Assembly (NCBI GenBank): GCA_016873655.1
Contig: VGWI01000005.1
Span: forward strand, 1,455 to 65,454
Length of the DNA: 64,000 bases
Direction: 5' to 3'
From: Lentisphaerota bacterium
GTDB lineage: Bacteria; Verrucomicrobiota; Kiritimatiellia; UBA8416; VGWI01
Part shown: positions 81 through 15,143 of the stretch, one piece after another
Layout of the letters: each line of letters starts with the position of its first letter
Numbering within the stretch: position 1 is the first letter of the stretch
The notes under the pieces: generated by a model
The model's database searches: none
The model's input: only the letters and a program-made list of their open reading frames with translations
What the model was told of the DNA's origin: nothing
Position numbers and translations under genes: made by a program

Positions 81-371
81 TCAGATCTCCTCTTCCACCG
101 GCAGCGAGAATATCTTCAGCCCCTCGCCCGGATACAACCCGCTGCGGAACTCGCGAAGCGCCGCGGCCAGGTCCTTGCCTTTCTGGTCGCTTACGGCGGT
201 AAACAGGAGGGCCGAACGTTCCGGCCATACGTGCGTGCCGAGTTTCAGCCCCGTTTCGCCCTCGCCAGTCACGGATTCCAGCTCCGAATAAGCGTGCACC
301 CCGTGGCCCCGGATGACTTCACGAACACCCTCGACACGGTCAGGAGGACATATGACCATCAACAGCTTCAT
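81..371 (-). CDS. small PII/CutA-like protein (DUF3240-like), terminal gene of the RND operon
   Basis: 96-aa ORF. Its start overlaps the RND permease stop by ATGA. The size and position behind an RND pump resemble small PII-fold proteins; this is from recollection only. Confidence 0.5.
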   Translation of the reverse strand: MKLLMVICPPDRVEGVREVIRGHGVHAYSELESVTGEGETGLKLGTHVWPERSALLFTAVSDQKGKDLAAALREFRSGLYPGEGLKIFSLPVEEEI

Positions 372-3300
372 TTCCGCACCCCCTCATGCGCCTTGCCCCC
401 GTACATCATCGCGTAAACAACCGGGATCACGCCCAGCGTGAATGCCGTGGACACAAACAGTCCGAATATGATGGACCAGGCCAATCCGCTGAAAATCGGG
501 TCGAACGTGATCGGCCATGCGCCGAGAAGCGTGGTTCCGGTGGTAAGGAAGATCGGCCTGAAACGCGTGGCCCCGGCCGCTATCACCGCCTCGCGCAGGC
601 CGGCGCCGCGCGCCATCGAGTTGCGGATGAAATCGATGAGGACGATCGCGTTGCGCTGCACTATGCCGCCCAGCGCTATCATCCCGATCATCGCCGTCGC
701 GGTGAAGAATACCGGATTCGGATACCCTCCCACCGGGCTGTTGACAATCGTGTTAAGGAGCCAGAACCCCGGCATTATGCCTATCAGCGTCAGCGGGATC
801 GAAAGCATGATGACCCCTGGCAAACCGTACGACCCCGTCTCGTAAACCAGCAGGGCATAGATCGCCAGCAGCGCCACCGCAAACGCGATGCCAAGGTCGC
901 GGAAGACATCGAGCGTTATCTTCCATTCGCCCTCTCCCCTCCAGTCCACCCGGATACCGCCCGGCAACGGGTTCTTCTCGAAATGCCGCTGCGCGTCGAG
1001 CACCGCGTAGGCCGGCCCCCTGCCCGCCGTCTCGGCCGTAACGTAAACCACGCGTTCCAGGTTCTTGTGGAAGATGGTCTTGTCCTCCACACGCTCGGAG
1101 AACTTTCCGAGTTCCCCAAGCTGCACGGAGCCCCCGCGCCCCTTCACCGGCAGGGAACGCAGCAGCGCGGCGTTGGACCGCTTCTCCTGCGGCAGGCGCA
1201 GGATGATCGGCAACTCGTTCTTCTCGGTCGGGACATGCAGCGTGCCCGCAAACATGCCGTCCAGCGCAAGGGCCAGTGTGGACGTGACGTCCTCGGTCGA
1301 AAGCCCGTTCCTCGCCGCTTTCTCGCGGTCCACTTCGAAAACCAGCTTGGCCTGGTCGCTTTCGGCCGTCACATCGGCCTCGACAACGCCCTCCTGCCGC
1401 GCCAGCGCTTCGCGAACCGTCCCCGCCGCGGCGATGAGGCCTGCGTACGGTTGCGGCGACGTGCCGTAGACCTCGGCAACCACGGTCGCCAGCACCGGTG
1501 GCCCCGGCGGCACCTCGACCAGACTCACCTGTGCGCCGTTGCGCCCCGCAATTTCGCCTACGTCTCGCCGGATCCGCAGAACGATCGAATGGCTGCTCAT
1601 CTCACGCTTGGCGCGATGCATCAGGTTCACCCGGACGTCGGCCGTGTGCGGCCCCTGGCGCAGGTAGTAGTGCCTGACCATGCCGTTGAAATCCATCGGC
1701 GACGCCTTGCCCACGGTAGAGGTGAAATTGGCGACCTCGGGCATCGTCCGCAGGTAATCCTCGATCTCCCGCACCACGGCATCGGTCCGCTCCAGCGTGC
1801 TGCCTTCCGGCATGTCGACAACCACCTGGAACTCGTTCCTGTTGTCGTACGGCAGCATTTTGAGCGGCACACGGCCGGTAACAGCCAGCATTACAGAAAA
1901 GAGGAAGAGACCCGCGACGGCCGCCAGAAGGGCAACCGATCTCCATCGGTGCCCGATAAACGGCCCCACGAGGCGCGAGTAGATGCGGTATGTCTTCGTC
2001 TCGCTCTCCTCCGCCGCGCCCCCCTCCTCACCGCCAGCCTTGAGCAGCTTGCTTGCCACCCACGGGGTGATCATGAAGGACACCAGCATGGAACAGAGCA
2101 TCGTAAGGGGCACGTTCAGGGCCATCGGCGCCATGTAAGGCCCCATCATTCCGCTGATGAAGAACATCGGAACGAAGGCGACCATGATCGCAAGTGTCGC
2201 CAGCACGATCGGCGGATGCACTTCCTTCATCGCGAGCGAGATCGCCTTGAGCCGCGGGTACCGTTTCATCGCAAGGAACCGCGATATGTTCTCGACGCCG
2301 ACTATCGGGTCATCCACCAGAAGGCCAAGGGCAAGGATCAGGGCAAAGAGAGTAACCCTGTTCATCGTGTATCCGAGCAGGTAGTTGAAAAGCAGCGTAA
2401 GCGAATAGGTTATCGGAATCGCCAGTCCCACGATAACACCCTCGCGCCATGACATCGTAAGCCATATCAGCCCGACAACGGTTATGACGCCCAGCGCCAG
2501 GTTCAACACCAGGTTGTTCACCTTCTCGTTGGCGGTCTCGCCGTAGTTGCGCGTGATCCGCGCCGTCACGTCGGCCGGAAGTACGGTCTCAGTCAACGCG
2601 TCCACCGCGTGCTCGACTTCGCGGGCCACCCGCACTGCGTTGCTCCCCTTCTTCTTCGCCACGGCCACGGTCACAGCCTGCTCGGAAGGCGCGCCGGGGC
2701 GCTCGGGGTCGGCGGGCCCGAAACCGATCCTGGAATAGGAGACAATCTCATCGGGGCCGTCGGTTACGGTCGCGATGTCCCGGAGATGCACAGGCCTGCC
2801 TCCGTGCATGCCGACGAGCAAGTTGGACGCCTCGCGCGCATCGCGCAGGAACAGCCCGGCCTCAACCAGTATCCGCCTGTCGGCCTGCGAGAACGAGCCC
2901 GACTGGGACTGGACATTGGACACCTTCAGCGCGCCGGCTATCTCCATTGCCGAGAGCCCGTAAGCAGCGAGACGTTCGGGGTCGAGTTCCACGCGGATAA
3001 TCCGCCGCTCGCCTCCGTGTATGGTGACGGCAGCCGCGTCCGGTATGCGCTGCATCCGCTGCACCGCCTCTTCCGCAATGCGGTAGAGCCCGTGCGTATC
3101 GGTGCGCGGACTGTGAAGCGCGACGGTGACAATCGGAACATCGTCTATCTCGATCGGCTTGATCACCCACCCGGCTATTCCCGGGGTCGTCTTGTCCACG
3201 TTCTGGAAGACCTTGTTGTAGAGCTTGATCAGGCTGGCTTCACGGTCTTCCCCAACCCTGAACCGGACGGTGACCACCGCCATGCCGGGGCGCGACATGG

Positions 3301-3578: not shown

Positions 3579-4643
3579 TCAAAACACCTCTTGCGGCACG
3601 GCCAGAACAGTCTCGCCCTCGGTCAGGCCGGCAAGGATCTCGGTCCTGCCGTCCATCCTCATCCCGCTCCTGACAAGACGCCTTGAAGCCGTCCCGCCCC
3701 GGACGACATACACATACTCCAACTGGCCGACCCTGGTTATCGCCGAGTCCGGCAGCATGTATCTCCGGACCGGATCGTCCTCTACGTAAAGCCGCCCGAA
3801 TGTGCCCGGCAGAACCTGTCCGCCCGCTTCCGGAAGCGCTATCTTCACCTTCTGAGTCCTGCTCGCGGGATCCACCTCCCCGACGACCTCGGTTACCTTG
3901 CCCCTGAACGCCCTGGCGGGACGCTCGAGCACCACGTCCACCTCCTGGCCAAGCTTCAGTTTCTCCACCAGCCGCACGGGAATGTCGGCCTCCAGCCGCA
4001 TGCGCGCCGGATCGTACACCGAGAGGAGCGGCTGCCCGGGCCCCGCCAGGTCGCCGACCTCAATGCGCCGCTCGGTTACCACCCCGTCTATTGGCGACGA
4101 TATCCGCGCGTACGTCAGCATCACCCGCACCCTGTCCACCTGCGCCTTCGCGGCATTGAACGATGACTCCGCGGCGACAAGCGCCTGGTCCGTGGCCGCC
4201 TTCCCGTCAAACAACTGGCGCGTGCGCAGGAATTCCGTTTCCGCCTGCTTGAACTGCGCCTCGGCGCCGGCAAGCTGCTCCCGGATCTCCCGGTCATCAA
4301 GGACCACCAGTTCGTCCCCGCGCTTTACCGCCGTCCCGGACGAGACGTGCACGCTGCTGATCGTCGCCGGAATCCGCGCGCTGAGGTGTATCTTCTCCTC
4401 CGATGCCGTGGTCCCGACAACCTGCACAAGGGCCGGCGCCTCCTCCGCCTTCACGGCAACGGTTTCGGCATCCGCGCCTACAGCGACGCCTGTGCGGCCG
4501 TCCTCCATCACCCCTGGCGCGACCTTTTCCGTGCAAGCGCCGCCAACCCACGCCATTATCGCCGCAAGCGCGGCCGATCCCGCGATCCACCGTACCGAAC
4601 GCTTCGCCTTCCGAAGGATCTCCCCCATCCGTGATATGTTCAT
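3579..4643 (-). CDS. RND periplasmic adaptor (HlyD/MFP family)
   Basis: 354 aa. Lipoprotein-like N-terminus (AWVGGAC), coiled-coil hairpin segment (EQLAGAEAQFKQAETEF...), beta-barrel C-terminus. Located between the OMF and the RND pump. Confidence 0.85.
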   Translation of the reverse strand: MNISRMGEILRKAKRSVRWIAGSAALAAIMAWVGGACTEKVAPGVMEDGRTGVAVGADAETVAVKAEEAPALVQVVGTTASEEKIHLSARIPATISSVHVSSGTAVKRGDELVVLDDREIREQLAGAEAQFKQAETEFLRTRQLFDGKAATDQALVAAESSFNAAKAQVDRVRVMLTYARISSPIDGVVTERRIEVGDLAGPGQPLLSVYDPARMRLEADIPVRLVEKLKLGQEVDVVLERPARAFRGKVTEVVGEVDPASRTQKVKIALPEAGGQVLPGTFGRLYVEDDPVRRYMLPDSAITRVGQLEYVYVVRGGTASRRLVRSGMRMDGRTEILAGLTEGETVLAVPQEVF

Positions 4644-4670
4644 GTCACTCCCCTCCGCTGTCGCGCGCCG

Positions 4671-6032
4671 CTACTTCTTCGCGCCTTCCGCATTGCTGTA
4701 AATGCCAACCAGTTCCCCCCTCGCCCGAGCCAGGTTGGACCGCGCGACGAGACAGTCGTAGCGGGCCGCAACATTCCGCGACCGGGTCGCGGTCAACCCA
4801 AGCTCCGCGGTCAGGAGAATCGATATGTCCGCAACGCCCTGCCTGTAACGTTCCCTTGTTATCCGCGCCGCCTCCAACGCGTTCTCCACGCTCTTCCGGG
4901 CTACCTCGGCCCTTTCAATTGCCTCGTCAAACATCAGGCCGGCGCGTTTCACGTCAAGCGCAACGCTGCTCCTGGCCGCCACAGCCTCATGCCTGGCGGC
5001 ATCCAGGTCAGCCCTCGCCTGCGCAACGGCGTGACCGCGCTGGAATCCGGTGAAGACATCCCATTCCGCGGCCAGCCCGGCCATGTAGCTTCCCTCAAAC
5101 GAATCGCCTTCCTCGGTGTCCCAGTCGTATGAACCGAACAGGCTGACCGCCGGAGAATATGCGCGCCGCGCCCTTGCCAGCGCATTCTCGCTGACCCGCA
5201 CCATCGCATCGGCCGCCGCGACTTCGGCCCGCATGAATTCCGCCCCATCCTGCCCGCCCCGCACTTCGCACACCTCTCCCGCTCCATCACCTGCATCAGC
5301 TATCCCTGCTTCCGGAACGAGCTCGATCCCTATAGCCGTGTTCAAGGCGGCAATCGCCATGCGCACGCCGTTCCTGGAACGAATGAGATCCTCCTTCGCC
5401 TGGGCAAGCTGGACCTCCAGGTTCAAGACATCCGTCTGCACAGCCGCGCCTGCAGACAGCCTCTCGCGCGCCACCCTGAGGCTCTCTTCCAGGCTCGAGA
5501 CGGAACTTTCCATCACCCCCACGAAGGACTGCGCCTGCAGAACGCCGTAGTACCCCCTTGTCACCTCGTGTATCAAACCGTTCCTGGCAGCGCTCACCGC
5601 ATGGCCGGCCGCGGACGCCCCGGCTTCGGCCATCCCGGCCTGGGCGGCCCGCAGCCCGCCATCGAAACACCTGTACCTGAGACCGGCCGAGAACCTCATA
5701 TTCGCACTGTCATCCGGCTCGTTCGGGTTGAAAGCCGGATCCATCATGTCCAGCGAACGCTGGTTGAGCGCCATCATGAACGCCTGCGGCGGGTTGTCTG
5801 TCATCGCCCACGATGCGCCCACCCCCAACCTCGGCCACCACGCTGACCGCGCCTGCCCAACCGCCTCCCGCGCCGAAACGGCCCTCGCCGCCGCCGCGCG
5901 CACCCCGGGATTTCCCGACAACGCCTCGCGCACACACTCTCCCAGGGAAATGACAGCCGGAGCAGAAACACCGTCCGCGCCGGCGACACCGCACATCACC
6001 AACACCCCGGCAAGCCAGGTTACTGTCTTCAT
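4671..6032 (-). CDS. TolC-family outer membrane efflux protein
   Basis: Signal peptide MKTVTWLAGVLVMCGVAGA and two tandem TolC-like repeats. I chose the ATG at 6032, which overlaps the arsR stop (ATGA). The ORF-track start at 6062 is probably too long. Confidence 0.85.
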   Translation of the reverse strand: MKTVTWLAGVLVMCGVAGADGVSAPAVISLGECVREALSGNPGVRAAAARAVSAREAVGQARSAWWPRLGVGASWAMTDNPPQAFMMALNQRSLDMMDPAFNPNEPDDSANMRFSAGLRYRCFDGGLRAAQAGMAEAGASAAGHAVSAARNGLIHEVTRGYYGVLQAQSFVGVMESSVSSLEESLRVARERLSAGAAVQTDVLNLEVQLAQAKEDLIRSRNGVRMAIAALNTAIGIELVPEAGIADAGDGAGEVCEVRGGQDGAEFMRAEVAAADAMVRVSENALARARRAYSPAVSLFGSYDWDTEEGDSFEGSYMAGLAAEWDVFTGFQRGHAVAQARADLDAARHEAVAARSSVALDVKRAGLMFDEAIERAEVARKSVENALEAARITRERYRQGVADISILLTAELGLTATRSRNVAARYDCLVARSNLARARGELVGIYSNAEGAKK

Positions 6033-6331
6033 CGCGCTTTCCCCTTCCCCCTCATGCAACACAGCACACTCATGCAGCGCCTGTCCGCAAGGTCATACCA
6101 CACCTCTTTGCCGCGCCTTTCCGCGCGGACCAGCCCAGCCTGCCTCATACGCGCCAGGTGCCCGGACACAGCCCCCTGCTTCATCCCCGTCCTCGCCATT
6201 ACTTCATGCACAGGAGCAGCGCCACCGTCGCCAATGGCAATCAGCATCCGCAACCTCTGCGGATGCGCCATCAGCTTCAGCGACTCAGCCATCTTCTCCA
6301 GCGTCCGATCAGATACACGCGCCTTCTTCAT
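6029..6331 (-). CDS. ArsR/SmtB-family transcriptional regulator
   Basis: 100 aa. Carries the winged-HTH signature LKLMAHPQRLRMLIAI...VHEV......QGAVSGHLARMRQAGLV..ERRGKEVWY. It is the first gene of the efflux operon. Confidence 0.85.
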   Translation of the reverse strand: MKKARVSDRTLEKMAESLKLMAHPQRLRMLIAIGDGGAAPVHEVMARTGMKQGAVSGHLARMRQAGLVRAERRGKEVWYDLADRRCMSVLCCMRGKGKAR

Positions 6332-6624
6332 GGGCGCGCATCATATCGTGTTATTCCTATATGTCAATACGTCTTCGTTGCTCACGCGAAATCCGGCCCG
6401 ACACGCAACTCCCGCGGTGCCGGCGCATGCGACACTTTGCCGTCGTCTCACGGCCCCTTTGAGACACGCGGACACATCGGGAGCCATCCGTCCGCCACAC
6501 CTCTTGTGCGCGGAAGTTGCTGTCGAACCGGGCGTTGCGTCGGCATCACATCAAAGCAATATACTGCTTGGCATGCGGCTTGCATAAGGGAGAGACTCGT
6601 TTCTGAAGAACAGGAGGACGGGAT

Positions 6625-7146
6625 ATGATCAAGCTTGTTGTTGGTGCGGCTCTGGGTGCGGCAATTGGCGGATGGATAGGGTACGCAAGCAAGTGTTCCG
6701 GAGGGGGCTGTCCGCTCATGGGGAATCCGGCCGGTGGAGCGATGTTCGGGGCGGTGATCGGCATTCTTATGGCTTCGTCCATCGCAGGCAGAACATCCAC
6801 CAGTGCGGTGCATTCGGAGCATGTGATTGAGGTGGCGGGGGTCGAGGCGTTCGATGCGTTGTTGAAGGCCCACCCCGTCGCGCTCGTTGATTTCTACGCG
6901 GACTGGTGCGGGCCCTGCAGGAAACTGAAGCCGGCCATCCATGAACTGGCCGACACGTACGAGGGCCGGGCAGCCGTGCTTGCCGTTAATGTTGACCGGA
7001 ACAGGGAACTCGCGGAAAGACACGGTGTAAGCGGAATACCGGATGTACGCGTCTTCAAGGACGGACAGGAAAAGAAGCGCTTCGTCGGACTGGGGCCTAA
7101 GTCTCAGTACTCGTCCGCGATAGACAGCCTGCTGGCCGGAGAGTGA
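6625..7146 (+). CDS. membrane-anchored thioredoxin with an N-terminal glycine-zipper/CxGGxCP domain
   Basis: The C-terminal part has VDFYADWCGPCRKLKP (WCGPC active site). The N-terminal ~55 aa is Gly-rich and hydrophobic, with the motif CSGGGCPLMGNP. Confidence 0.85.
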   Translation: MIKLVVGAALGAAIGGWIGYASKCSGGGCPLMGNPAGGAMFGAVIGILMASSIAGRTSTSAVHSEHVIEVAGVEAFDALLKAHPVALVDFYADWCGPCRKLKPAIHELADTYEGRAAVLAVNVDRNRELAERHGVSGIPDVRVFKDGQEKKRFVGLGPKSQYSSAIDSLLAGE

Positions 7147-7150
7147 TGGC

Positions 7151-8914
7151 ATGAGGTCCGCGCGCAACCAAACGACCGGAGGCAGGGGGACCATGACGAA
7201 GGCGACTCTCGAGGAGAGATCGTCCGCCATAACCCTGTCCGACATGGAGATATTCATATTCCCCGACCTCATGTACTCGCTCGTGCTGGCGAACATCATG
7301 TCGCCCCGGGTCTGGCTCTGGCGCGATGATCCCTGGTTTGACGGGATAGAGCGCATGACGCCATACCGGCGCATAGTCCGGCTCAAGCAGTACCTTATGG
7401 ACCACTATGCCTTCAACCTGGACCTCGACACATGGGGCCTGACCACGAAACAGCGCGAGATCAGCCGCTTTGCCCCGTTCATCGATTCCGCCACCCTCGC
7501 CGAATCCAACGCTCTCTTCGGTTACGAGGGAGACAAGTACTACTTCGACATAGATATCCGGCGCCACTTCGGCCTGGACAAGTACGACACCGACACGATC
7601 CCTTACTGGAAGACGGAAACGGTCGAAGCCATGGACGCATTCCGCCACAGGCCCGGCTATTCGACCGGCGCGGGCGAATGCGTTTCTCTTTCCACTCTGT
7701 ACGCCGCGGCGCTCTTCATAGTCGCCCGGATACCCCTGAATGACATCTTCCTGCTCGCCACGCCGCTTCACTCGCAGAATTTCGTGGATGTTGACGACGG
7801 CGTCCTGACCAACAACCGCCGTATCGTGACCAAGAACATGTGGTTCAACGGGACAGCGCTCTCCGCACAGGCCCGGCGGGCGCTTGAGAACGAACGGGTC
7901 ACCGTGGTCGCCCACGAGTCCGGTCATGTCCACACGCTCTATCCTGAAGCCACGATGGACAGGGCCGCCTACAACCGGTTCAGCGCGAAGCTTTCCGGCT
8001 TCCTCGCAACCGATCTCACCGCAGACACCCTGGGCAACTTCCTGCGCCACAACACTTCCATACAGAAATGCTTCCAGGTCCGCTGGCCGAGGCACGGGGC
8101 CGATTCGTATATCGGCGTGGAACAGGTGCTGGCATACGAAAACTCGTGCCCTTACAGGCTGAGCGATCGCACGAGGCCGAAGCTGATGCAGGAGGTAGAG
8201 TCCGAGGAGTTCAGCCCCAACCCACTCGCTTCCCGCATCGTCCTGAACGATCTGGAGGATTTCCTCCGGACGGAGAAGATCAGCATCCTGGATGGGCCCG
8301 GAACCGCGCGGCTGAAGGAAAGGTTCGCGACAAGCTGCCTGAACGCGGAGATCGCAATAGAATCCCTGCGCCGGTTCTGCGTAACGCGCCCAAGGCTGCC
8401 TGATACGGCAGGGAAGACATTCGCCCCGTCATCAACCCCGCTGGGTCTGGACGTCGAAATGACGCGCGAGGAAGTGATCGAACGCCTTGGTTCGCTCAGA
8501 GACAGGTCCCGTACGGCGGACCTTTCCTTCTACGCATTCAGGGATGTGCTTTCCACGGACGCAGCCCCTTTTGTCACAGCGGCCTGCGCCCGTTCGCCGG
8601 TATCGCTCACGGCAACCGCCGACATGGACCTGCCGGATGTGCTGGAAAAACTGGCGCAGATGCCCGGAGATTCCATCTACGACGGCAAGGGCCGGTTGGC
8701 CCAGCCGGATGAAGTGTGGAACTTCGGCCGGGGTGACGGAGTTGAGAAGGCTCTCCTGCTGGCCAATATCCTTCACAACAGGCGGCCGGACGAGAAGGTC
8801 GGGATAACCTGCAACGGAAACAAAGTGCTGGTCTCATCCCCCGCCGGAGAATACCATTTCGAATGTGCAAAAGGGATAGTTGGCGCTGAATGGGTGGTGG
8901 AACCGAAAGTCTAG
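7151..8914 (+). CDS. hypothetical protein with a transglutaminase-like Cys-His core
   Basis: 587-aa ORF starting 4 nt after the thioredoxin stop; an alternative start is 7193. GAGECVSLSTLYAAALFIVARIP...TPLHSQNFVDVDDG resembles the papain/transglutaminase-like Cys...His...Asp arrangement. A second, Cys-less copy of the motif (GRGDGVEKALLLANIL) lies near the C-terminus. Confidence 0.6.
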   Translation: MRSARNQTTGGRGTMTKATLEERSSAITLSDMEIFIFPDLMYSLVLANIMSPRVWLWRDDPWFDGIERMTPYRRIVRLKQYLMDHYAFNLDLDTWGLTTKQREISRFAPFIDSATLAESNALFGYEGDKYYFDIDIRRHFGLDKYDTDTIPYWKTETVEAMDAFRHRPGYSTGAGECVSLSTLYAAALFIVARIPLNDIFLLATPLHSQNFVDVDDGVLTNNRRIVTKNMWFNGTALSAQARRALENERVTVVAHESGHVHTLYPEATMDRAAYNRFSAKLSGFLATDLTADTLGNFLRHNTSIQKCFQVRWPRHGADSYIGVEQVLAYENSCPYRLSDRTRPKLMQEVESEEFSPNPLASRIVLNDLEDFLRTEKISILDGPGTARLKERFATSCLNAEIAIESLRRFCVTRPRLPDTAGKTFAPSSTPLGLDVEMTREEVIERLGSLRDRSRTADLSFYAFRDVLSTDAAPFVTAACARSPVSLTATADMDLPDVLEKLAQMPGDSIYDGKGRLAQPDEVWNFGRGDGVEKALLLANILHNRRPDEKVGITCNGNKVLVSSPAGEYHFECAKGIVGAEWVVEPKV

Positions 8915-9139
8915 CGCACATTGTTCATGTTCTTCGTCGCGAGAGGGCGCAGGGTGCGTCAGATCAACGGCTTGCCGAAGAGGGCCGGATGGCGGCGTGT
9001 TGACACACGTCAAAGTCGGCCATCAAGGCAAGTCGCTGAGGTGGCGTATCATGTGCACTCGCAGCAGAAGGTTCATGAATAATGTGCGCCAGGACCGTAC
9101 GTCAGGCAAAGAAGAACACGACAGCAACAGGAGGGTAGT

Positions 9140-9502
9140 ATGGGAACTGCATCGGACCTGTGGTGGAAAATGAACAAGCAGACCGACGAAACCGGCGAGA
9201 CCGGCGAGAAACACACGCCCTATCTCACCGTTGAAGGCGATGCCAAACCCGGCAACGCCGTGAAGGTCACGGTTGACGTCGGACGCGGCAAACACCCCAA
9301 CGAGGCCGCACACAGCATCCAGTGGGTCGAACTGCGCGCGAACGATCTCTACATCGGAAGGGCCGAGTTCGCGGCCGGCATCACGAAGCCGATAGCGACG
9401 TTCACCGTCGTCGTCCCGGCCCAGGGCAGCATAGCGCTGACAGCCGTGGAGCGCTGCAACCTGCACGGGCTGTGGCAGAGCAATCCGCTCAAACTGGGTT
9501 GA
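9140..9502 (+). CDS. sor: superoxide reductase (1Fe-SOR / neelaredoxin type)
   Basis: Motifs GEKHTPYL, HPNEAAHSIQWVEL and CNLHGLW match the His4-Cys iron site of SORs. A GGAGGG Shine-Dalgarno lies 4 nt before the ATG. Confidence 0.85.
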   Translation: MGTASDLWWKMNKQTDETGETGEKHTPYLTVEGDAKPGNAVKVTVDVGRGKHPNEAAHSIQWVELRANDLYIGRAEFAAGITKPIATFTVVVPAQGSIALTAVERCNLHGLWQSNPLKLG

Positions 9503-9541
9503 CGGTCAGGATCAGAAACTGAAGGATGGCCGGGACAGCCG

Positions 9542-11455
9542 TCATGCTTGCCCGGCCATCCTTCTTCTTATGCGCACGGCCACCCGTGGCAGAGACCTGG
9601 CGCCAGACAGAAAAAGCCTGACCGGTCTGACAAGGAAATACAGGAACGCCAGACATCCGGGCAGATTCACGGCCTTCCAGTCGCTGTAGCTCGGAAGAAT
9701 CGCCAGAAGGGACAAATGCCGTATCCGGTCCCTCAGCCGCTCCCGGATCGCAAGATGAAAACGCAGACTCCTGTCCCAGGTTGAGCCTGCCCCGGAAGGC
9801 TTTGCCATGCAGTGCAACACCCTCTCGGCAAGCAGCTCTGCTTCCGCGTCTCCGCCCGACGGCCATCCTTCAAGTCCAGGGACGCCGGCCACTCCAGCCG
9901 CCAGCACGAGCCCCGTACGCACGATGCGCTCACAACCGGCCGACCGCGCCTGCCGCAACACATGCTCGCCGTCAAGACGGTCGCGCCGCGACAGCAACCC
10001 GGCAACGTCCATCACCCACATTGCCCTGTCCCACTCGTGCTTCGCACCATGAATGCAGCATAGAAAGAGGTGGTCCTCAGGCGATAGCGACGGCAGTTCA
10101 CAACCGTCTATCATCACCTGACGACGGCGACGCCAGAAGACATCGAAGTCGGGAAACGGCATGAAGTGTCTCGACACAACTCCGCACGACAGCTCAACGC
10201 TCAAAGGACTGCGTTTCGACCGGAAAGACATTTCACCCGTAAGCCGCGCGTGAACGGGCATCCGTTCGGTCGGGAGACCCCCCTGCCAGACGTAGCCGCA
10301 GTCCTCCATCACTTTCCACGCGCGGCCCATCTCCCGCCGGTCAATGAGAATGTCAACGTCCCAGGAGTTGCGCAGGAACGGATCGCCGTACGCCGCGAGA
10401 GAAAGAACGGGACCCTTGAGCGGCAGACACCTTACCCCTTCTCCACCCAGCTTCGCGCAAATGGCGCCGGTTTCAGCCAGTATCGCCAGACTCCTCGCCT
10501 TCGCATGGAGGGCATCCACTCGAAGCGATTCTCTTGTTTCCGAAGGAACGGTCTTCCACGCATGCCGTCGGAGCCCATCGAGGAGTAACGGCTGAACCGC
10601 GTGACTTCTCGCAAGGCGTTCGACTTCACTCCAATCGGAAACCTGGATCTTCAGGTCATCGGCCCTTGCAGGGCTCACAACGCAGGCACAAGCATCAATC
10701 ACTGCGTCGAGTTCTCGACCCCAACGGCGCCAGCCCGGAATTCTCCCCGCCCCCGGATCGGCGCGGCCAGCCACACCGTGAAAGGGTGAATGCGGCGGGG
10801 CCAGGACCTCGAACGGAAAACTGCAGCGCCAGCGTCCATCTTCGGCCCGTTCCCATCCCACAACCCGCCGCCCTACCATGAGCTTCCGCGTTGAATTCGG
10901 CCCTTCCCCAAACCGGACAATACGTGGTCGGCGCCGAAAGAGCACTGCACGGCATACGCTGTCAGACAACGCAAGCGCACGAAACGTCCGCGTCACGGCA
11001 CGCAGGATACGGCAGACCGAACGCGCAGACACGGCCAGCAGGAGACCCGTCACCCCACCCGCCACCCGCTTCACTTCCTTTCCGCGCCAACGCTTCACCA
11101 CAAGCCCCAGCACCTGCGTTCGATCAAGCGTCCACGGGTCGGCGCCACAACAGGCGTCGCCGCGAGTGCAGAGCGACCCAGGAACCCCGCTGACGACCCT
11201 ATGAACCACTATTCCGCCGGAACCGGACGGCACGGCGGCCACGACATCGCCAACCCGCACTGGCTTGTCGGCGCACGGGATTACCTCAAGAAGGTCGCCT
11301 TCCCGCAAAACCGGGAACATGCTGTCACCGCGATGTACGCAAAAGAACGCGCCCGAAGGGTCCCCGGGATTGACGGCAAATAAACGCTCTCCCCCAGCCA
11401 CGCGGGAAAAAGACAACTGAACAGCGGAAGGCGGCCTGTATCCGCAGGCTTTCAC
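9542..11455 (-). CDS. fusion of a SipW-type (S26B-like) signal/leader peptidase domain with an uncharacterised nucleotidyltransferase (NTP_transf_5-like)
   Basis: The N-terminus has HRGDSMFPVLREGDLLEV...GIVVHRVV...TRGDAC..D, a Ser/His peptidase pattern. The C-terminal part has LKGPVLSLAAYGDPFLRNSWDVDILI, typical of the nucleotidyltransferase family seen in lasso/RiPP clusters. I chose the GTG at 11455, which overlaps the upstream stop (GTGA); the track start at 11533 would overlap by 82 nt. Confidence 0.7.
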   Translation of the reverse strand: MKACGYRPPSAVQLSFSRVAGGERLFAVNPGDPSGAFFCVHRGDSMFPVLREGDLLEVIPCADKPVRVGDVVAAVPSGSGGIVVHRVVSGVPGSLCTRGDACCGADPWTLDRTQVLGLVVKRWRGKEVKRVAGGVTGLLLAVSARSVCRILRAVTRTFRALALSDSVCRAVLFRRRPRIVRFGEGPNSTRKLMVGRRVVGWERAEDGRWRCSFPFEVLAPPHSPFHGVAGRADPGAGRIPGWRRWGRELDAVIDACACVVSPARADDLKIQVSDWSEVERLARSHAVQPLLLDGLRRHAWKTVPSETRESLRVDALHAKARSLAILAETGAICAKLGGEGVRCLPLKGPVLSLAAYGDPFLRNSWDVDILIDRREMGRAWKVMEDCGYVWQGGLPTERMPVHARLTGEMSFRSKRSPLSVELSCGVVSRHFMPFPDFDVFWRRRRQVMIDGCELPSLSPEDHLFLCCIHGAKHEWDRAMWVMDVAGLLSRRDRLDGEHVLRQARSAGCERIVRTGLVLAAGVAGVPGLEGWPSGGDAEAELLAERVLHCMAKPSGAGSTWDRSLRFHLAIRERLRDRIRHLSLLAILPSYSDWKAVNLPGCLAFLYFLVRPVRLFLSGARSLPRVAVRIRRRMAGQA

Positions 11456-12351
11456 CTGGAAGGCGTCCTGCTGATGGCTTGCTCGATGGCGCTCCAGAAT
11501 CTGTTTCGGAGAGTGACTCGGAGAGAGAAACAAGGCACAGCCGAGGCTATCGCCCGCGCGTTGTCCAGTAGCTGGAGCCTTATCCGCCTTGTCTCCGCCC
11601 CGCCCGGCGCCTCAATCGCATCCCAGGAAGCATCATACGCCCTGCCCAGAAGCTCAATGGATGCGTTCGACACCCCCACAGGAGCAACGCGGCGCGCCGA
11701 ATCCCGAGACATGAAGAACACCCCGGCAAGCCGCACACCATGCGACACGCGCCAGGCCGCATTCGACTCTCCCTTGAACAGACGGCTCCACGTCGGCCAC
11801 GGATGAGCCCAGTAACTCCCGTCCGGCGCCTTGACCACAAGCGCTGCGTCATCGCTCAAAGACCGCCACGGCGCTTTGAAACGCCTGCTGGCCGTTGTCT
11901 TGCCCATTCCGGAAACACCAGCGAGAATGACACCTCTTCCTCGCAACTCCGCAAGTGCGCCGTGAAGAAGCAGCCCCCCGGATTCTTCAGCATGGCGGGA
12001 GAACACGTAGGCAAGCGACATCGCCCGCCCGATGAGCTCTGGTTCCCCTTCGAACGCCTCAACATGGCATGTCAACCGTTCGGGACTCGGAGGCCGGCCC
12101 CTGCACGGAGCCGCGGACGCGAAAGGAATGTATACGCGGGGAGCCACCACGCGACACTGCCGACGGCCCGACAACCGGGAAACAGACGCCACGTCGAGCA
12201 GCAGATTCGCAGCCACGGAAGACCTCGGCCGCTCGCATCTCATTGTGCGGCACAGGCGCCCGACCAGCTGACCGGCAATGCCATCCGCCCCTTCAAGACG
12301 CCACACAGCGCCACTCTTGAGGCGCAAACACCGCCCGCTGGACAAACCCAT
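11452..12351 (-). CDS. HPr-kinase-related protein (ScmC-like)
   Basis: 299 aa. LHGALAELRGRGVILAGVSGMGKTTASRRF resembles the HprK/P P-loop region. It sits 27 nt downstream of the precursor gene. Confidence 0.7.
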   Translation of the reverse strand: MGLSSGRCLRLKSGAVWRLEGADGIAGQLVGRLCRTMRCERPRSSVAANLLLDVASVSRLSGRRQCRVVAPRVYIPFASAAPCRGRPPSPERLTCHVEAFEGEPELIGRAMSLAYVFSRHAEESGGLLLHGALAELRGRGVILAGVSGMGKTTASRRFKAPWRSLSDDAALVVKAPDGSYWAHPWPTWSRLFKGESNAAWRVSHGVRLAGVFFMSRDSARRVAPVGVSNASIELLGRAYDASWDAIEAPGGAETRRIRLQLLDNARAIASAVPCFSLRVTLRNRFWSAIEQAISRTPSR

Positions 12352-12378: not shown

Positions 12379-12588
12379 TCAGCTTCCCTGGTTACCGGAC
12401 GCACAGGAACCGCTGGGAGGAACGTTGCCGCTCTTGCACTGGTTCACCTGCGGCGTGCTCCCGTTGCCACACACCTGCGAAACGCTGGTGCCATGACTGC
12501 ATTTCTGCATCACACCACGCCCGCTGGCCAGCCCACCCAGAGGCAGAACCGTCGGCTTCGCCCATTCCGGCTTCTGATTCTCTTTCAC
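12379..12588 (-). CDS. RiPP precursor peptide (69 aa, Cys/Gly/Ser/Asn-rich core)
   Basis: GTG start at 12588, preceded by AAGGGAGGA with a 6-nt spacer. Sequence: (M)KENQKPEWAKPTVLPLGGLASGRGVMQKCSHGTSVSQVCGNGSTPQVNQCKSGNVPPSGSCASGNQGS. It lies between the rSAM genes and the kinase-like gene. The track lists only a 111-aa version that overlaps the rSAM gene. Confidence 0.6.
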   Translation of the reverse strand: MKENQKPEWAKPTVLPLGGLASGRGVMQKCSHGTSVSQVCGNGSTPQVNQCKSGNVPPSGSCASGNQGS

Positions 12589-12625: not shown

Positions 12626-13717
12626 TCAAACCGTACCGCCAACACGGGTGCTCGGAAACAAGCCCTGCTCCTCTGCCTGCTCACAGAACCAGTAAGGCCC
12701 CCACATGCTGCCAAGCCTGTAATAATTCTGAGCCAGGCACGCCCCCAAGCATCTTGAATTCATGAGACAACGACCGCAGACGCCCTGCAGCCTCTGCGGC
12801 AACCCCGCGCGAATCTCGCCCAGAACGCGGCTTCCGCGCCATATTCCGCTTAGATTATCCTTCCCTGCCATTCCGAAAACAAGCTCTTTCACCTGCATTC
12901 CTATGCCGCACAAGGCGTAGTGGCCGGTGCTCAGAAGACCTAGTATCGTCAGTATCCCGCAACTTTCGTCTGATCTGGCGATCCGTCCCAGCGGACGGAA
13001 TGCCTGCGGAATGTCGAAGTGGAGCGACATCCTGGTCCTGGCGGCCAGATCCGAATCAACGATCCGCCCCGCGGCAACAAGCTCCTCTACGCCCGGCAAC
13101 GCATTGGCCCGACCAAGATCAGCCCCGCGCGCTGTCGGCTCAACCATGTTGAACCTAACGGACCCGGCGCCAAGCCGCTCAGCCATCCTTACCACCGCCT
13201 CGATCTGGCCCATGTTCTCGCGCACAAGAGTCATCACAACCTGGGGCGCCAGCCCCGCTTCCGACAGGTTCCTGACCGCACGGCAAGCCTTGTCGAATGA
13301 CCCGGCAATGCCCCTCAGCCACTCGTGCGTGGCGGCGTCTGCCCCGTCAATGCTCACCGACACAAACGGCCTTGGCGCTCCGGCGATCAGCCTGGCCGTC
13401 TCAGGAGTGCATAGAAGACCGTTTGTCTCGACCTGCACGGATACTCCAGCCTTCGACGCTATCTCGACAAGATCGCCGAACCGAGGGTGAAGCAGCGGCT
13501 CGCCACCGGTGAACTTGACCGACGACAGGCCCAAAGGCTTGGCTTCACGAACCACCCCCTCAAACACGTCCACGGGGAGAACGGCATGCCCGCTGCCGTC
13601 AGCATCGAACTTGGGCGCCAGCCAGCAGTGCCTGCACGCAAGGTTGCACCCTTCCGTGAGGTAACAGTAGATCGTCCCGAGCGGCGGCACGCTGCCGTCT
13701 TCAACGGCATCACTCAT
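12626..13717 (-). CDS. radical SAM/SPASM-domain peptide maturase
   Basis: CNLACRHC (CxxxCxxC) near the N-terminus. The C-terminus has Cys-rich SPASM motifs (CGILT...ALCG, CGRCLMNSRCLGAC). Its start overlaps the upstream rSAM stop by ATGA. Confidence 0.9.
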   Translation of the reverse strand: MSDAVEDGSVPPLGTIYCYLTEGCNLACRHCWLAPKFDADGSGHAVLPVDVFEGVVREAKPLGLSSVKFTGGEPLLHPRFGDLVEIASKAGVSVQVETNGLLCTPETARLIAGAPRPFVSVSIDGADAATHEWLRGIAGSFDKACRAVRNLSEAGLAPQVVMTLVRENMGQIEAVVRMAERLGAGSVRFNMVEPTARGADLGRANALPGVEELVAAGRIVDSDLAARTRMSLHFDIPQAFRPLGRIARSDESCGILTILGLLSTGHYALCGIGMQVKELVFGMAGKDNLSGIWRGSRVLGEIRAGLPQRLQGVCGRCLMNSRCLGACLAQNYYRLGSMWGPYWFCEQAEEQGLFPSTRVGGTV

Positions 13718-14850
13718 GGTATATCCTCCGGCCTTCCGCCTGAATCAAGGAAGCGCCTGAGACAGCCGTCGGGACTCGGCGCATTCACCCGCCGGCTCTG
13801 CGTGTAAGCCATGGCAGGACAGCTGCCCGTGCAGTACGGAGAATAGAGACACGCGCGGCAGTACTCGAAATCCTTCAACTCTATTGAAGATCTCGACCTC
13901 AATTCGGCGAGCACCGGACTGTTATTCCAGACCGCTTCGAGCGAATCTTTGTTGATTCTCCCCATCTCCATGTGCGCGAGCAGCACACAGGGGATAATTA
14001 CGCCGTCGGCACGGACAGCACATGTTGTGAAATGGCAACCGCACCCGGTCAGCCTCCCGCCGTCATCAAAGGTCCCGGCCCCGCATCCGGCGGCATCCAG
14101 CATCTTCCTCCACGTCAGGGCATCGGCAAGAGGCCCGGCATTGGCCAGAACCCTGCCCGGATACCGGCCCGCAATTCTCACAAGCGCCTGCATCGCCTCG
14201 GCGTGGAGAGCGGGATCAAGAAGCAGTTCGTCGGCGTGCCGCCGGCATGTTCCGATATACCCCGCGGAATTGGTCCCGAATCTCGCCAGCCCAAGATCTT
14301 CGAGAAGAAACCGCGCCGTCTCTTCCAGATGGCCGACGTTGTGACGACTGATGGTCACGCGCACGCCAACCGGAATGCTGTGCGACTGAAGACGTTTGAG
14401 CCCGGCAATCGCGGCATCGAAACTGCCCCGGCCCCGGGTCGCGTCATGGATCCTGGCGCATGGGCCATCCACGGAAACCTGCACCTGGTCACACCTGTTG
14501 GTCCGCGCAATGAACGCAGCCATGGAGTCGTCTATAAGCGTTCCGTTGCTCAGAACCGCAAAACGCATCCTGTTCTCAACCACCCCGCTGATGACTTCCC
14601 GAAGGTCGCCGCGCATGAAGGGCTCGCCGCCCTGGAGCGTCACCCGCATGACCCCGCAGCGGCCCAGCTCCTCAAAGAAACTCAACCATTCCCCGAGTGG
14701 AAGATCGTGATAGGGCACTTCGGGATTGTCGAAGAAGTAGCAGTAGCTGCATCGCTGGTTGCATGCGGCTGTTATCTCTACGTCAACGTACCTGGGGGTG
14801 CGTATCACGCGCATCCCATGCGCCGACCCCCCTTTTTCTCCATCGGACAT
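13714..14850 (-). CDS. radical SAM/SPASM-domain peptide maturase (second copy)
   Basis: CNQRCSYC cluster and C-terminal SPASM cysteines (GCGCHFTTC...PC, YCRACLYSPYCTGSCP). The ATG at 14850 is 2 nt after the PqqD-like stop. I rejected the 503-aa track version because it overlaps the PqqD-like gene. Confidence 0.9.
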   Translation of the reverse strand: MSDGEKGGSAHGMRVIRTPRYVDVEITAACNQRCSYCYFFDNPEVPYHDLPLGEWLSFFEELGRCGVMRVTLQGGEPFMRGDLREVISGVVENRMRFAVLSNGTLIDDSMAAFIARTNRCDQVQVSVDGPCARIHDATRGRGSFDAAIAGLKRLQSHSIPVGVRVTISRHNVGHLEETARFLLEDLGLARFGTNSAGYIGTCRRHADELLLDPALHAEAMQALVRIAGRYPGRVLANAGPLADALTWRKMLDAAGCGAGTFDDGGRLTGCGCHFTTCAVRADGVIIPCVLLAHMEMGRINKDSLEAVWNNSPVLAELRSRSSIELKDFEYCRACLYSPYCTGSCPAMAYTQSRRVNAPSPDGCLRRFLDSGGRPEDIP

Positions 14851-14852
14851 GT

Positions 14853-15143
14853 CTACCCCTCGGCACCCTCGGCGACGCCGAAGAAACCGTCGCGCGCGAG
14901 TTCGTCTGCGAAAGACAGCACTTCGCCGGACGCACCCTCCGGCACGTTGCTGAAACGCCGGGCAACGGTGGCGGCTATGTCCCTCAAGGAACGCGTGCCG
15001 TCGGCCTGCTTCCAGATCTCGACCCCAACCGGGTTGGTCCCGACCGCGGCGCTGGTGTCGGGATTGAACAGAATCGCCCAGTCGTCGGATTCCTCCCTGA
15101 GCACTACCACGGGGTTCGGCACGGGCGCGTCGTCGAGTTTCAT
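14853..15143 (-). CDS. PqqD-family peptide chaperone (RiPP recognition element, ScmD-like)
   Basis: 96 aa. ...ILFNPDTSAAVGTNPVGVEIWKQADGTRSLRDIAATVARRF......EVLSFADELARDGF is the typical PqqD/RRE pattern. It is the first gene of the minus-strand operon. Confidence 0.8.
   Translation of the reverse strand: MKLDDAPVPNPVVVLREESDDWAILFNPDTSAAVGTNPVGVEIWKQADGTRSLRDIAATVARRFSNVPEGASGEVLSFADELARDGFFGVAEGAEG

Follow-up and report, generated by a model that had tools for sequence, protein, structure and literature searches.

The window analyzed here is a 64,000-nucleotide stretch of a Lentisphaerota bacterium genome (contig VGWI01000005.1), and it contains a peptide gene cassette in which a signal-peptidase-like domain and a nucleotidyltransferase (NTase) are encoded by a single gene. 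Judged by its profile matches, the cassette is a SynChlorMet (Scm) radical-SAM (S-adenosylmethionine) peptide cassette. ScmC, ScmE and ScmF lie in one operon and all score above their curated NCBIfam cut-offs (145.7, 496.5 and 478.1 bits against 125, 400 and 400, respectively). The best match of ScmD is TIGR04248, at 84.5 bits and under the cut-off of 100, and its PqqD domain is clear from PF05402. The operon order is ScmD, ScmE, ScmF, precursor, ScmC and peptidase::NTase (the double colon marks a fusion), with an ATP-binding cassette (ABC) exporter transcribed divergently. The features are as follows:

9542-11533, minus strand: peptidase::NTase fusion, stop-to-stop open reading frame (ORF); most likely 9542-11455, 637 amino acids from a GTG
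10796-11455, minus strand: S26B-like peptidase module of the fusion, anchorless; fusion residues 1-220, core about 34-132
9542-10795, minus strand: linker and PF14907 (NTP_transf_5) nucleotidyltransferase, same ORF; Pfam core about 9896-10639
11452-12351, minus strand: ScmC, P-loop phosphotransferase of the HPr-kinase/phosphoenolpyruvate carboxykinase (PEPCK) fold, 299 amino acids; TIGR04249, 145.7 bits
12379-12588, minus strand: precursor peptide (ScmA-type), 69 amino acids; GTG start with a GGGAGGA Shine-Dalgarno sequence upstream
12626-13717, minus strand: ScmF, radical SAM/SPASM maturase; TIGR04251, 478.1 bits, cut-off 400
13714-14850, minus strand: ScmE, radical SAM/SPASM maturase; TIGR04250, 496.5 bits, cut-off 400; start at the ATG of MSDGEKGG
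14853-15143, minus strand: ScmD, PqqD-type recognition element (RRE) for RiPPs, peptides made on the ribosome and modified after translation; PF05402, 48.3 bits
15391-17181, plus strand: ABC exporter, MsbA-like, divergent; PF00005 and MsbA-type NCBIfam matches; start at GTG 15391 or ATG 15433
9140-9502: superoxide reductase gene, convergent, closing the cluster

A preliminary description of this DNA had proposed that an HPr-kinase-like enzyme and a peptidase::NTase fusion act on a radical-SAM-modified precursor that ends in ..GNQGS, in a cluster whose exporter has no C39 peptidase domain. The radical-SAM context is confirmed by the scores of ScmE and ScmF, the precursor does end in this way, and Pfam and NCBIfam scans find no C39 peptidase domain in the window exporter.

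The extent of the fusion gene depends on the choice of start codon. The most likely start is a GTG at position 11455, which forms an overlapping GTGA with the stop codon of ScmC and reproduces the 637 amino acids given earlier. A TTG at 11533 was rejected for its 82-nt overlap with ScmC, and the ATG at 11320, which is the database call, was rejected because the invariant nucleophile Ser45 would be lost. A GTG at 11401 is a possible alternative that retains Ser45. The public copy of the protein has 592 amino acids, being called from the ATG one codon past the catalytic Ser45 (window 11318-11323), and so the peptidase is concealed in the annotation. Since 11 of the 150 best database relatives of the peptidase start at the same post-Ser Met, the mis-called start looks systematic. 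Automated annotation thus hides the nucleophile of an S26B-like RiPP peptidase family, in which gene callers often cut at this Met.

The peptidase part of the fusion carries the motifs G43-D44-S45-M46-F47-P48, V83-V84-H85-R86-V87-V88 and R98-G99-D100, with S45 encoded at 11321-11323 and H85 at 11201-11203; D100 and D106 also belong to the catalytic core. Taken singly, the sequence gives only distant matches: TIGR02228 (archaeal-type signal peptidase I) scores 28.6 bits against the N-terminal part, under the cut-off of 51.85, a single-sequence search reaches SEC11A/C at E 0.04 only, and scans of NCBIfam and Pfam return generic signal-peptidase models and no Scm-specific one. Among 1.8 billion representative proteins, 2552 relatives reach E<=1e-3, of which 532 also reach E<=1e-10. 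Across 101 stand-alone homologues no variation is seen at S45, M46, G69, D70, H85, R86, G99 or D100, and D106 is conserved at >=90%. The profile of these homologues matches human SEC11C (E 1.3e-14) and SEC11A (E 1e-13) over S-M-x-P, H-R and G-D-N-N...D, with D106 aligned to the second Asp of the SEC11 V-D-D; the acidic box of the window fusion reads A-C instead of N-N.

Structure prediction points the same way. The AlphaFold2 (AF2) model of the peptidase domain (predicted local distance difference test, pLDDT, 86.4) has SEC11A, LexA and SpsB as its top Foldseek matches, and superposition of residues 34-132 with E. coli signal peptidase I gives Z 12.5 and a root-mean-square deviation of 1.8 A over 97 residues; LexA, UmuD, SpsB and SEC11 come next. 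By sequence and model, the fold and catalytic set are those of the S26B (SipW/Sec11) Ser/His/Asp type, with S45, H85 and D106. The N-terminal domain therefore models as the S24/S26 peptidase that had been predicted for it, within one ORF that also yields the PF14907 match and with the quoted motifs in place. The domain had been drawn to end at residue 160; it is N-terminal as proposed, but the module runs to about residue 218, as residues 133-218 form a conserved 85-residue extension of helices and a small beta-sheet. No 19-residue stretch of the window domain exceeds a Kyte-Doolittle value of 1.5, as a membrane anchor would, and among the 101 homologues values exceed 1.6 in two and 2.0 in none.

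PF14907 matches the remainder of the fusion at 181 bits (cut-off 31.2) over residues 273-520 of the 637-residue protein, with the active-site residues G348, D366-x-D368 and D483. In an alignment of 13 NTase homologues G128, D146, D148 and D263 (domain-alignment numbering) are invariant. In the scans the NTase matched PF14907 in Pfam alone, nothing in NCBIfam and no Scm-specific model; a PDB sequence search returned no relative of the domain, and a literature search on PF14907 gave one unrelated mention. In the pseudomycoidin pathway, the NTase PsmN adds hexose to a phosphate, and the DD pair of the kinase PsmK and the DxD pair of PsmN are essential for activity when mutated (PMC6993621). From the motifs rather than from an alignment, we infer that these pairs correspond to ScmC D167/D168 and NTase D366/D368. 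In one other locus (L066:1216-2799) ScmC is joined to the C-terminal half of PF14907 only (profile positions 130-249), without the half that holds G...DxD, and this C-terminal half may be a separable binding domain.

ScmC, whose family is named PF27840 in Pfam 38.1, has H130 in an LHG motif, a Walker A motif G-V-S-G-M-G-K151-T-T and an S-D167-D168 pair. The region after the D-D pair lacks the signature loop of HPr kinases and instead carries a family-specific A-H-P-W-P-T-W-S motif at residues 182-189. Across 33 homologues H130, G150, K151, T153, D167, D168 and HPWPTWS are invariant. Matches to HPr kinases are weak (PF07475 at 17.8 bits against a cut-off of 33.3, TIGR00679 at 17.2 against 240, TIGR04352 at 25.7), the ScmC profile reaches the HPrK/P structure 1ko7 at E 0.004, and a protein-atlas search returned ScmC clusters only. 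The AF2 model (pLDDT 83) aligns along its entire chain to PEP carboxykinases at Z 14. The PEPCK fold class also includes HPrK/P. Given the PEPCK likeness along the whole length and the faint HPrK sequence matches, sequence and model indicate that ScmC is an HPrK/PEPCK-fold phosphotransferase and not an HPr kinase proper. The earlier label of an HPr-kinase-like enzyme holds in this sense, through the fold and the invariant Walker A, LHG and DD residues.

To place the window cassette among its relatives, the ScmC alignment was run against 185,579 species genomes, yielding 155 loci. From these, 80 were fetched and annotated with iterated profiles seeded from the window proteins. The taxa represented are Thermodesulfobacteriota, Chloroflexota, Lentisphaerota, Acidobacteriota, Aminicenantes, Nitrospirota, WOR-3, Methanotrichaceae, Methanoregula and others. 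Cassette content was counted in the 45 loci that measure 12 kb or more:

Peptidase: 43 of 45 loci
Precursor: 42 of 45 loci
ScmD: 41 of 45 loci
ScmE: 40 of 45 loci
ScmF: 40 of 45 loci
ABC exporter: 36 of 45 loci
NTase: 32 of 45 loci

Two genes next to the window cassette were considered as further members and rejected: a 587-amino-acid protein and a thioredoxin (6625-8914) have no relatives in the 80 loci. The former (7151-8914, plus strand) also has no Pfam match. Among the cassette exporters, 40 of 42 measure at most 642 amino acids even when read stop to stop, and are thus too short for a C39 domain.

The back-end genes are fused to one another in several combinations. Peptidase and ScmC form one ORF in 35 of the 80 loci (23 peptidase::ScmC and 12 ScmC::peptidase), and other architectures comprise ScmD::peptidase (an RRE::peptidase fusion), NTase::peptidase and ScmC fused to the C-terminal NTase half; a second homologue search added further RRE::peptidase fusions. 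These pairwise fusions argue that kinase, peptidase and NTase work as one complex. The peptidase::NTase architecture of the window recurs in at least nine other clusters at 50% identity. In a quick peptidase-domain tree, seven of the ten such sequences, the window included, fall in one weak group (Shimodaira-Hasegawa-like approximate likelihood ratio, SH-aLRT, 83), and the fusions may share a single origin. The preliminary description treated this fusion as not known from earlier accounts. We likewise found no paper on it, but it is no peculiarity of the window, given these clusters and a second copy in the same genome.

In a genome of the same order (L102), the peptidase (4592-5233) and the NTase (5237-6463) lie in the same frame, parted by a single TAG and 15 nt, an arrangement that by its sequence is one mutational step from the window fusion. 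The same arrangement could be read in favor of an artefact, in which an assembly or sequencing error removed the stop between two genes of the window. The nine clusters of the same architecture, six of them in the weak clade with the window, speak against such an error, as do the presence of a second fusion of only 24% identity on another contig of this genome and the same ORF in the database for this contig, and we regard an artefact as extremely improbable. From these comparisons we take the peptidase::NTase fusion to be a lineage variant of two genes that normally lie side by side.

Two Anaerolineae loci carry ScmD, precursor, ScmC, peptidase and NTase (L030:8929-12644 and L074:3246-7263) with no radical-SAM gene in the flanking DNA covered (about 9 kb to each side in L030, only about 3 kb upstream in L074). 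The precursors of both loci have few Cys residues and finish with ...K-x-P-G-F-[TS]-W. With no radical-SAM gene near, only ScmC and the NTase are left as candidate modifiers there, and on this gene content they seem to be peptide modifiers in themselves. Glycosyltransferase genes adjoin the L030 cassette.

The genome of the window holds further back ends. On contig 46, ORFs at 5146-5658(+), 5639-6517(-), 6524-6706(-), 6722-7930(-), 7779-8162(-) and 8907-10070(-) make up a cassette of an S26B-like peptidase (with S-M, H-R and G-D), an HprK-like protein, a precursor, one radical SAM/SPASM enzyme, a PqqD protein and an NTase with PF14907; no Scm model scores above its cut-off there. Its precursor has 60 amino acids (MEAQKKKYERPVV...), with one Cys, a Leu end and Y in the leader motif [Y/W]xxP. 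On contig 51, the second S24/S26-like::PF14907 fusion (212-1948, plus strand, 578 amino acids, 24% identical to that of the window) sits at the contig start, its upstream partners lost, and is followed by CinA, an H+-pyrophosphatase and an ABC transporter. By sequence there are three such back ends in this one genome.

The closest characterized system is the linear polyphosphorylated peptide (LPP) pathway, lppA-K-B-S-D-N, of Paenibacillus alginolyticus DSM5050 (Popov et al., Nat Commun 2026, PMC13381572). The gene set of this family comprises the SipW-like signal peptidase I LppS, the discrete RRE LppB, the HprK-like LppK, the NTP transferase LppN, an exporter of the MsbA type and a precursor with YxxP (PMC13381572). 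Deletion of lppS abolishes processing, the S29A, H68A and D93A variants are inactive, and leader cleavage depends on the RRE (PMC13381572). LppK places up to four phosphates on core Ser3, beside the cleavage site; deletion of lppK abolishes phosphorylation, and the unphosphorylated precursor is cleaved poorly (PMC13381572). The same study describes such SpI-like peptidases as previously undescribed in RiPP pathways, treats LPP as restricted to Bacillota and mentions neither radical SAM enzymes nor fused forms (PMC13381572).

The role of dedicated leader peptidase, proposed earlier for the S26B-like domain, is strongly backed by its near-universal presence in Scm cassettes, its fusions to ScmD and ScmC, its lack of a membrane anchor, the C39-less exporters and the analogy to LppS (PMC13381572). 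The fold is common to LexA and UmuD, so the domain could instead be a LexA-like self-cleaving or regulatory module, an enzyme that trims C-termini, a transpeptidase of the TraF kind or an inactive domain, and two ScmC::peptidase fusions (P0097 and P0137) have lost the nucleophile. Yet a His rather than Lys general base with a GD(NN) box is of the SipW/Sec11 type, the catalytic set is intact in the window, the domain is fused to an RRE and occurs in 43 of 45 cassettes, and LppS has been shown to be a leader peptidase (PMC13381572); we rate a role other than leader removal as very unlikely. In P0097 and P0137 the nucleophile Ser is replaced by Asn or Ala, with the His also lost in one (alignment columns about 430-470), and their sequences suggest that these two may be pseudo-peptidase scaffolds.

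Which residue ScmC would modify was examined in 68 Scm precursors, 66 of which were used for positions counted from the first core Cys. The precursors have the common pattern K-Y-E-x-P-x-V-x-P-L-G-x-x-x-K-G-x-G, followed by C-x-x-G modules 10-11 residues apart. The distance from the leader Pro of YxxP to the first Cys is 15-16 residues in 49 of the 66, and G-x-G sits 1-4 residues ahead of this Cys. The window precursor has the leader ...E-W-A-K-P-T-V-L-P-L-G-G-L-A-S-G-R-G and a core of four C-x-x-G modules ending in ...GNQGS; a 111-amino-acid read-through of it gave no NCBIfam match, but the precursor aligns with 36 cassette precursors. The most conserved hydroxyl is found four residues after the first Cys, where 67% of precursors have Ser and 73% have Ser or Thr, compared with 21% Ser at the same position over all modules.

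By analogy to paeninodin and pseudomycoidin, ScmC was first thought to phosphorylate the C-terminal Ser69, with the NTase decorating that phosphate. The Ser end of the window precursor fits this proposal, and HprK-like kinases of lasso peptide clusters do use a C-terminal Ser (PMC8498205), to which PsmN adds hexose (PMC6993621). A Ser end, however, is found in only 4 of the 68 precursors, although ScmC is present in every cassette, and more of them end in Gly (13), Ala (8), Thr (7) or Pro (6). Precursors from same-order and same-class genomes end in Pro, Phe and Leu, and that of contig 46 in Leu. With a composition of about 30% Ser and Thr, hydroxyl residues near the precursor C-termini are uninformative, and in cores rich in Ser, Gly, Thr and Ala one terminal Ser is unsurprising. 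LPP, the closest characterized system with the same peptidase type, uses core Ser3 (PMC13381572). We thus consider phosphorylation of Ser69 improbable, and of the preliminary description the domains and the leader-peptidase role stand while the C-terminal acceptor does not.

The leader of the window precursor differs in one further respect. Its [Y/W]xxP motif has W9 (12562-12564) in place of Y, which is unique among the 68 Scm precursors. In Bacillota, Y versus W in this motif decides which RRE binds which leader (PMC13381572). By the same logic, W9 may insulate the window pathway from the co-resident Y-type cassette.

There are possible explanations for what ScmC does. One holds that it leaves the peptide unmodified and assists the leader peptidase as an ATP-binding partner or as a scaffold, for substrate presentation or gating, as could be suggested by its fusion to the peptidase in 35 of 80 loci, by precursors in which no hydroxyl is strictly conserved and by the HPWPTWS motif that replaces the HPrK signature loop. 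The phosphoryl-transfer residues (Walker A Lys, LHG His and DD pair) are nevertheless invariant, the DD pair is essential in PsmK (PMC6993621) and deletion of LppK abolishes phosphorylation (PMC13381572), and cassettes devoid of radical-SAM genes leave the kinase-like protein and the NTase as the only candidate modifiers. A purely supporting role of ScmC is in our view unlikely. The explanation that we favor, with somewhat better than even confidence and by analogy, is that ScmC, peptidase and NTase constitute the processing and tailoring end of the Scm pathway and work like the K, S and N enzymes of LPP.

Under this proposal, ScmD would bind the [Y/W]xxP leader motif and present the precursor. 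ScmC would then phosphorylate a precursor hydroxyl in an ATP-dependent step, most likely near the core start in the first C-x-x-G-S/T module (T34/S35) and not at the C-terminal Ser. The cytoplasmic Ser45/His85/Asp106 peptidase would cut the leader at or beside G-x-G (G23-R24-G25), probably with a preference for phosphorylated substrate, and the fused PF14907 NTase would elaborate the phosphate further. ScmE and ScmF would introduce cross-links in the Cys modules, with export of the product by the ABC pump that has no C39 domain. Phosphorylation-dependent cleavage, as in LPP, would explain the frequent peptidase/ScmC fusion.

Several points weigh against this explanation. The likeness of the Scm proteins, known from their genes, to those of LPP is one of common family labels, gene architecture and leader motif. 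A PDB sequence search with ScmD found PqqD alone, at E 0.38, and no LppB chain. The first-module Ser is not invariant (73% Ser or Thr), the window has Thr at that position, and LppK did not accept Thr (PMC13381572). The LPP cut follows F-E-T and not G-x-G, which makes the Scm cleavage site a guess. LppN showed no detectable activity in the heterologous host (PMC13381572). ScmC has no HPrK signature loop and scores far under HPrK cut-offs, and given its whole-length PEPCK likeness the acceptor need not be a protein hydroxyl.

A broader hypothesis, which we put forward tentatively and at well below even confidence, is that a portable back end of RRE, PEPCK/HPrK-fold kinase, anchorless S26B peptidase and PF14907 NTase moves between RiPP classes in bacteria and archaea, and decorates a radical-SAM cross-linked peptide with phosphate in Scm cassettes. 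If true, a phosphate-decorated radical-SAM cross-linked peptide would be a product type not yet seen, and the W/Y insulation would follow the same pathway-discrimination principle that separates LPP from paeninodin in Bacillota. Roles that can be tested are now assigned to three genes of the widespread SynChlorMet cassette, and in experiments on the acceptor the first core module takes the place of the C-terminal Ser. LPP-type machinery, described in 2026 as Bacillota-specific and linear, is here joined to radical SAM/SPASM enzymes in many anaerobe phyla and in methanogens. The Scm cassette itself is known from databases and the LPP mechanism from the literature; what is new is their link, the multi-phylum and archaeal spread, the fusion network including peptidase::NTase, and the three back ends in one genome.

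Comparison with known systems places the window cassette between several of them. In relation to the SynChlorMet definition (TIGR04248-04252, PF27840), ScmC, ScmE and ScmF pass their cut-offs, the gene content matches the 80 loci, and ScmD and the precursor probably fall into the same families, whereas the peptidase and NTase share one ORF and the precursor lies between ScmF and ScmC. Literature searches returned no paper on this cassette, with ScmC/E/F and the TIGR numbers leading to unrelated acronyms. Relative to SipW, Sec11 and archaeal signal peptidase I (MEROPS S26B), the window domain has in common the fold, S-M-x-P, H-R and the G-D-(N-N)...D box, but it has no transmembrane anchor, adds the 85-residue C-terminal module and stays below the TIGR02228 cut-off; its predicted substrate is a cytoplasmic RiPP leader in place of the Sec signal peptide of SipW and Sec11.

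The lasso clusters of paeninodin and pseudomycoidin likewise pair a kinase and an NTase with an RRE-dependent leader peptidase, and an NTase fused to the lasso B2 leader peptidase, which is unrelated to S26, is on record (PMC8498205). They rely, however, on a transglutaminase-fold Cys protease and a macrolactam cyclase where the window has an S26 peptidase, and the conserved C-terminal Ser on which their HprK-like kinases act (PMC8498205) is without counterpart in Scm precursors. LPP comes closest. Its RRE, HprK-like kinase, SpI-like peptidase, NTP transferase, MsbA-like exporter and [Y/W]xxP precursor all have equivalents in the window and recur over the 45 large loci, and the kinase and peptidase that are functionally coupled in LPP are often fused in Scm. 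In contrast, LPP has no radical SAM enzyme, a linear product, separate genes throughout, a leader ending in F-E-T and no Cys-x-x-Gly core repeats, whereas the window operon combines two radical SAM/SPASM maturases with a fused gene, a G-x-G leader end and a C-x-x-G core.

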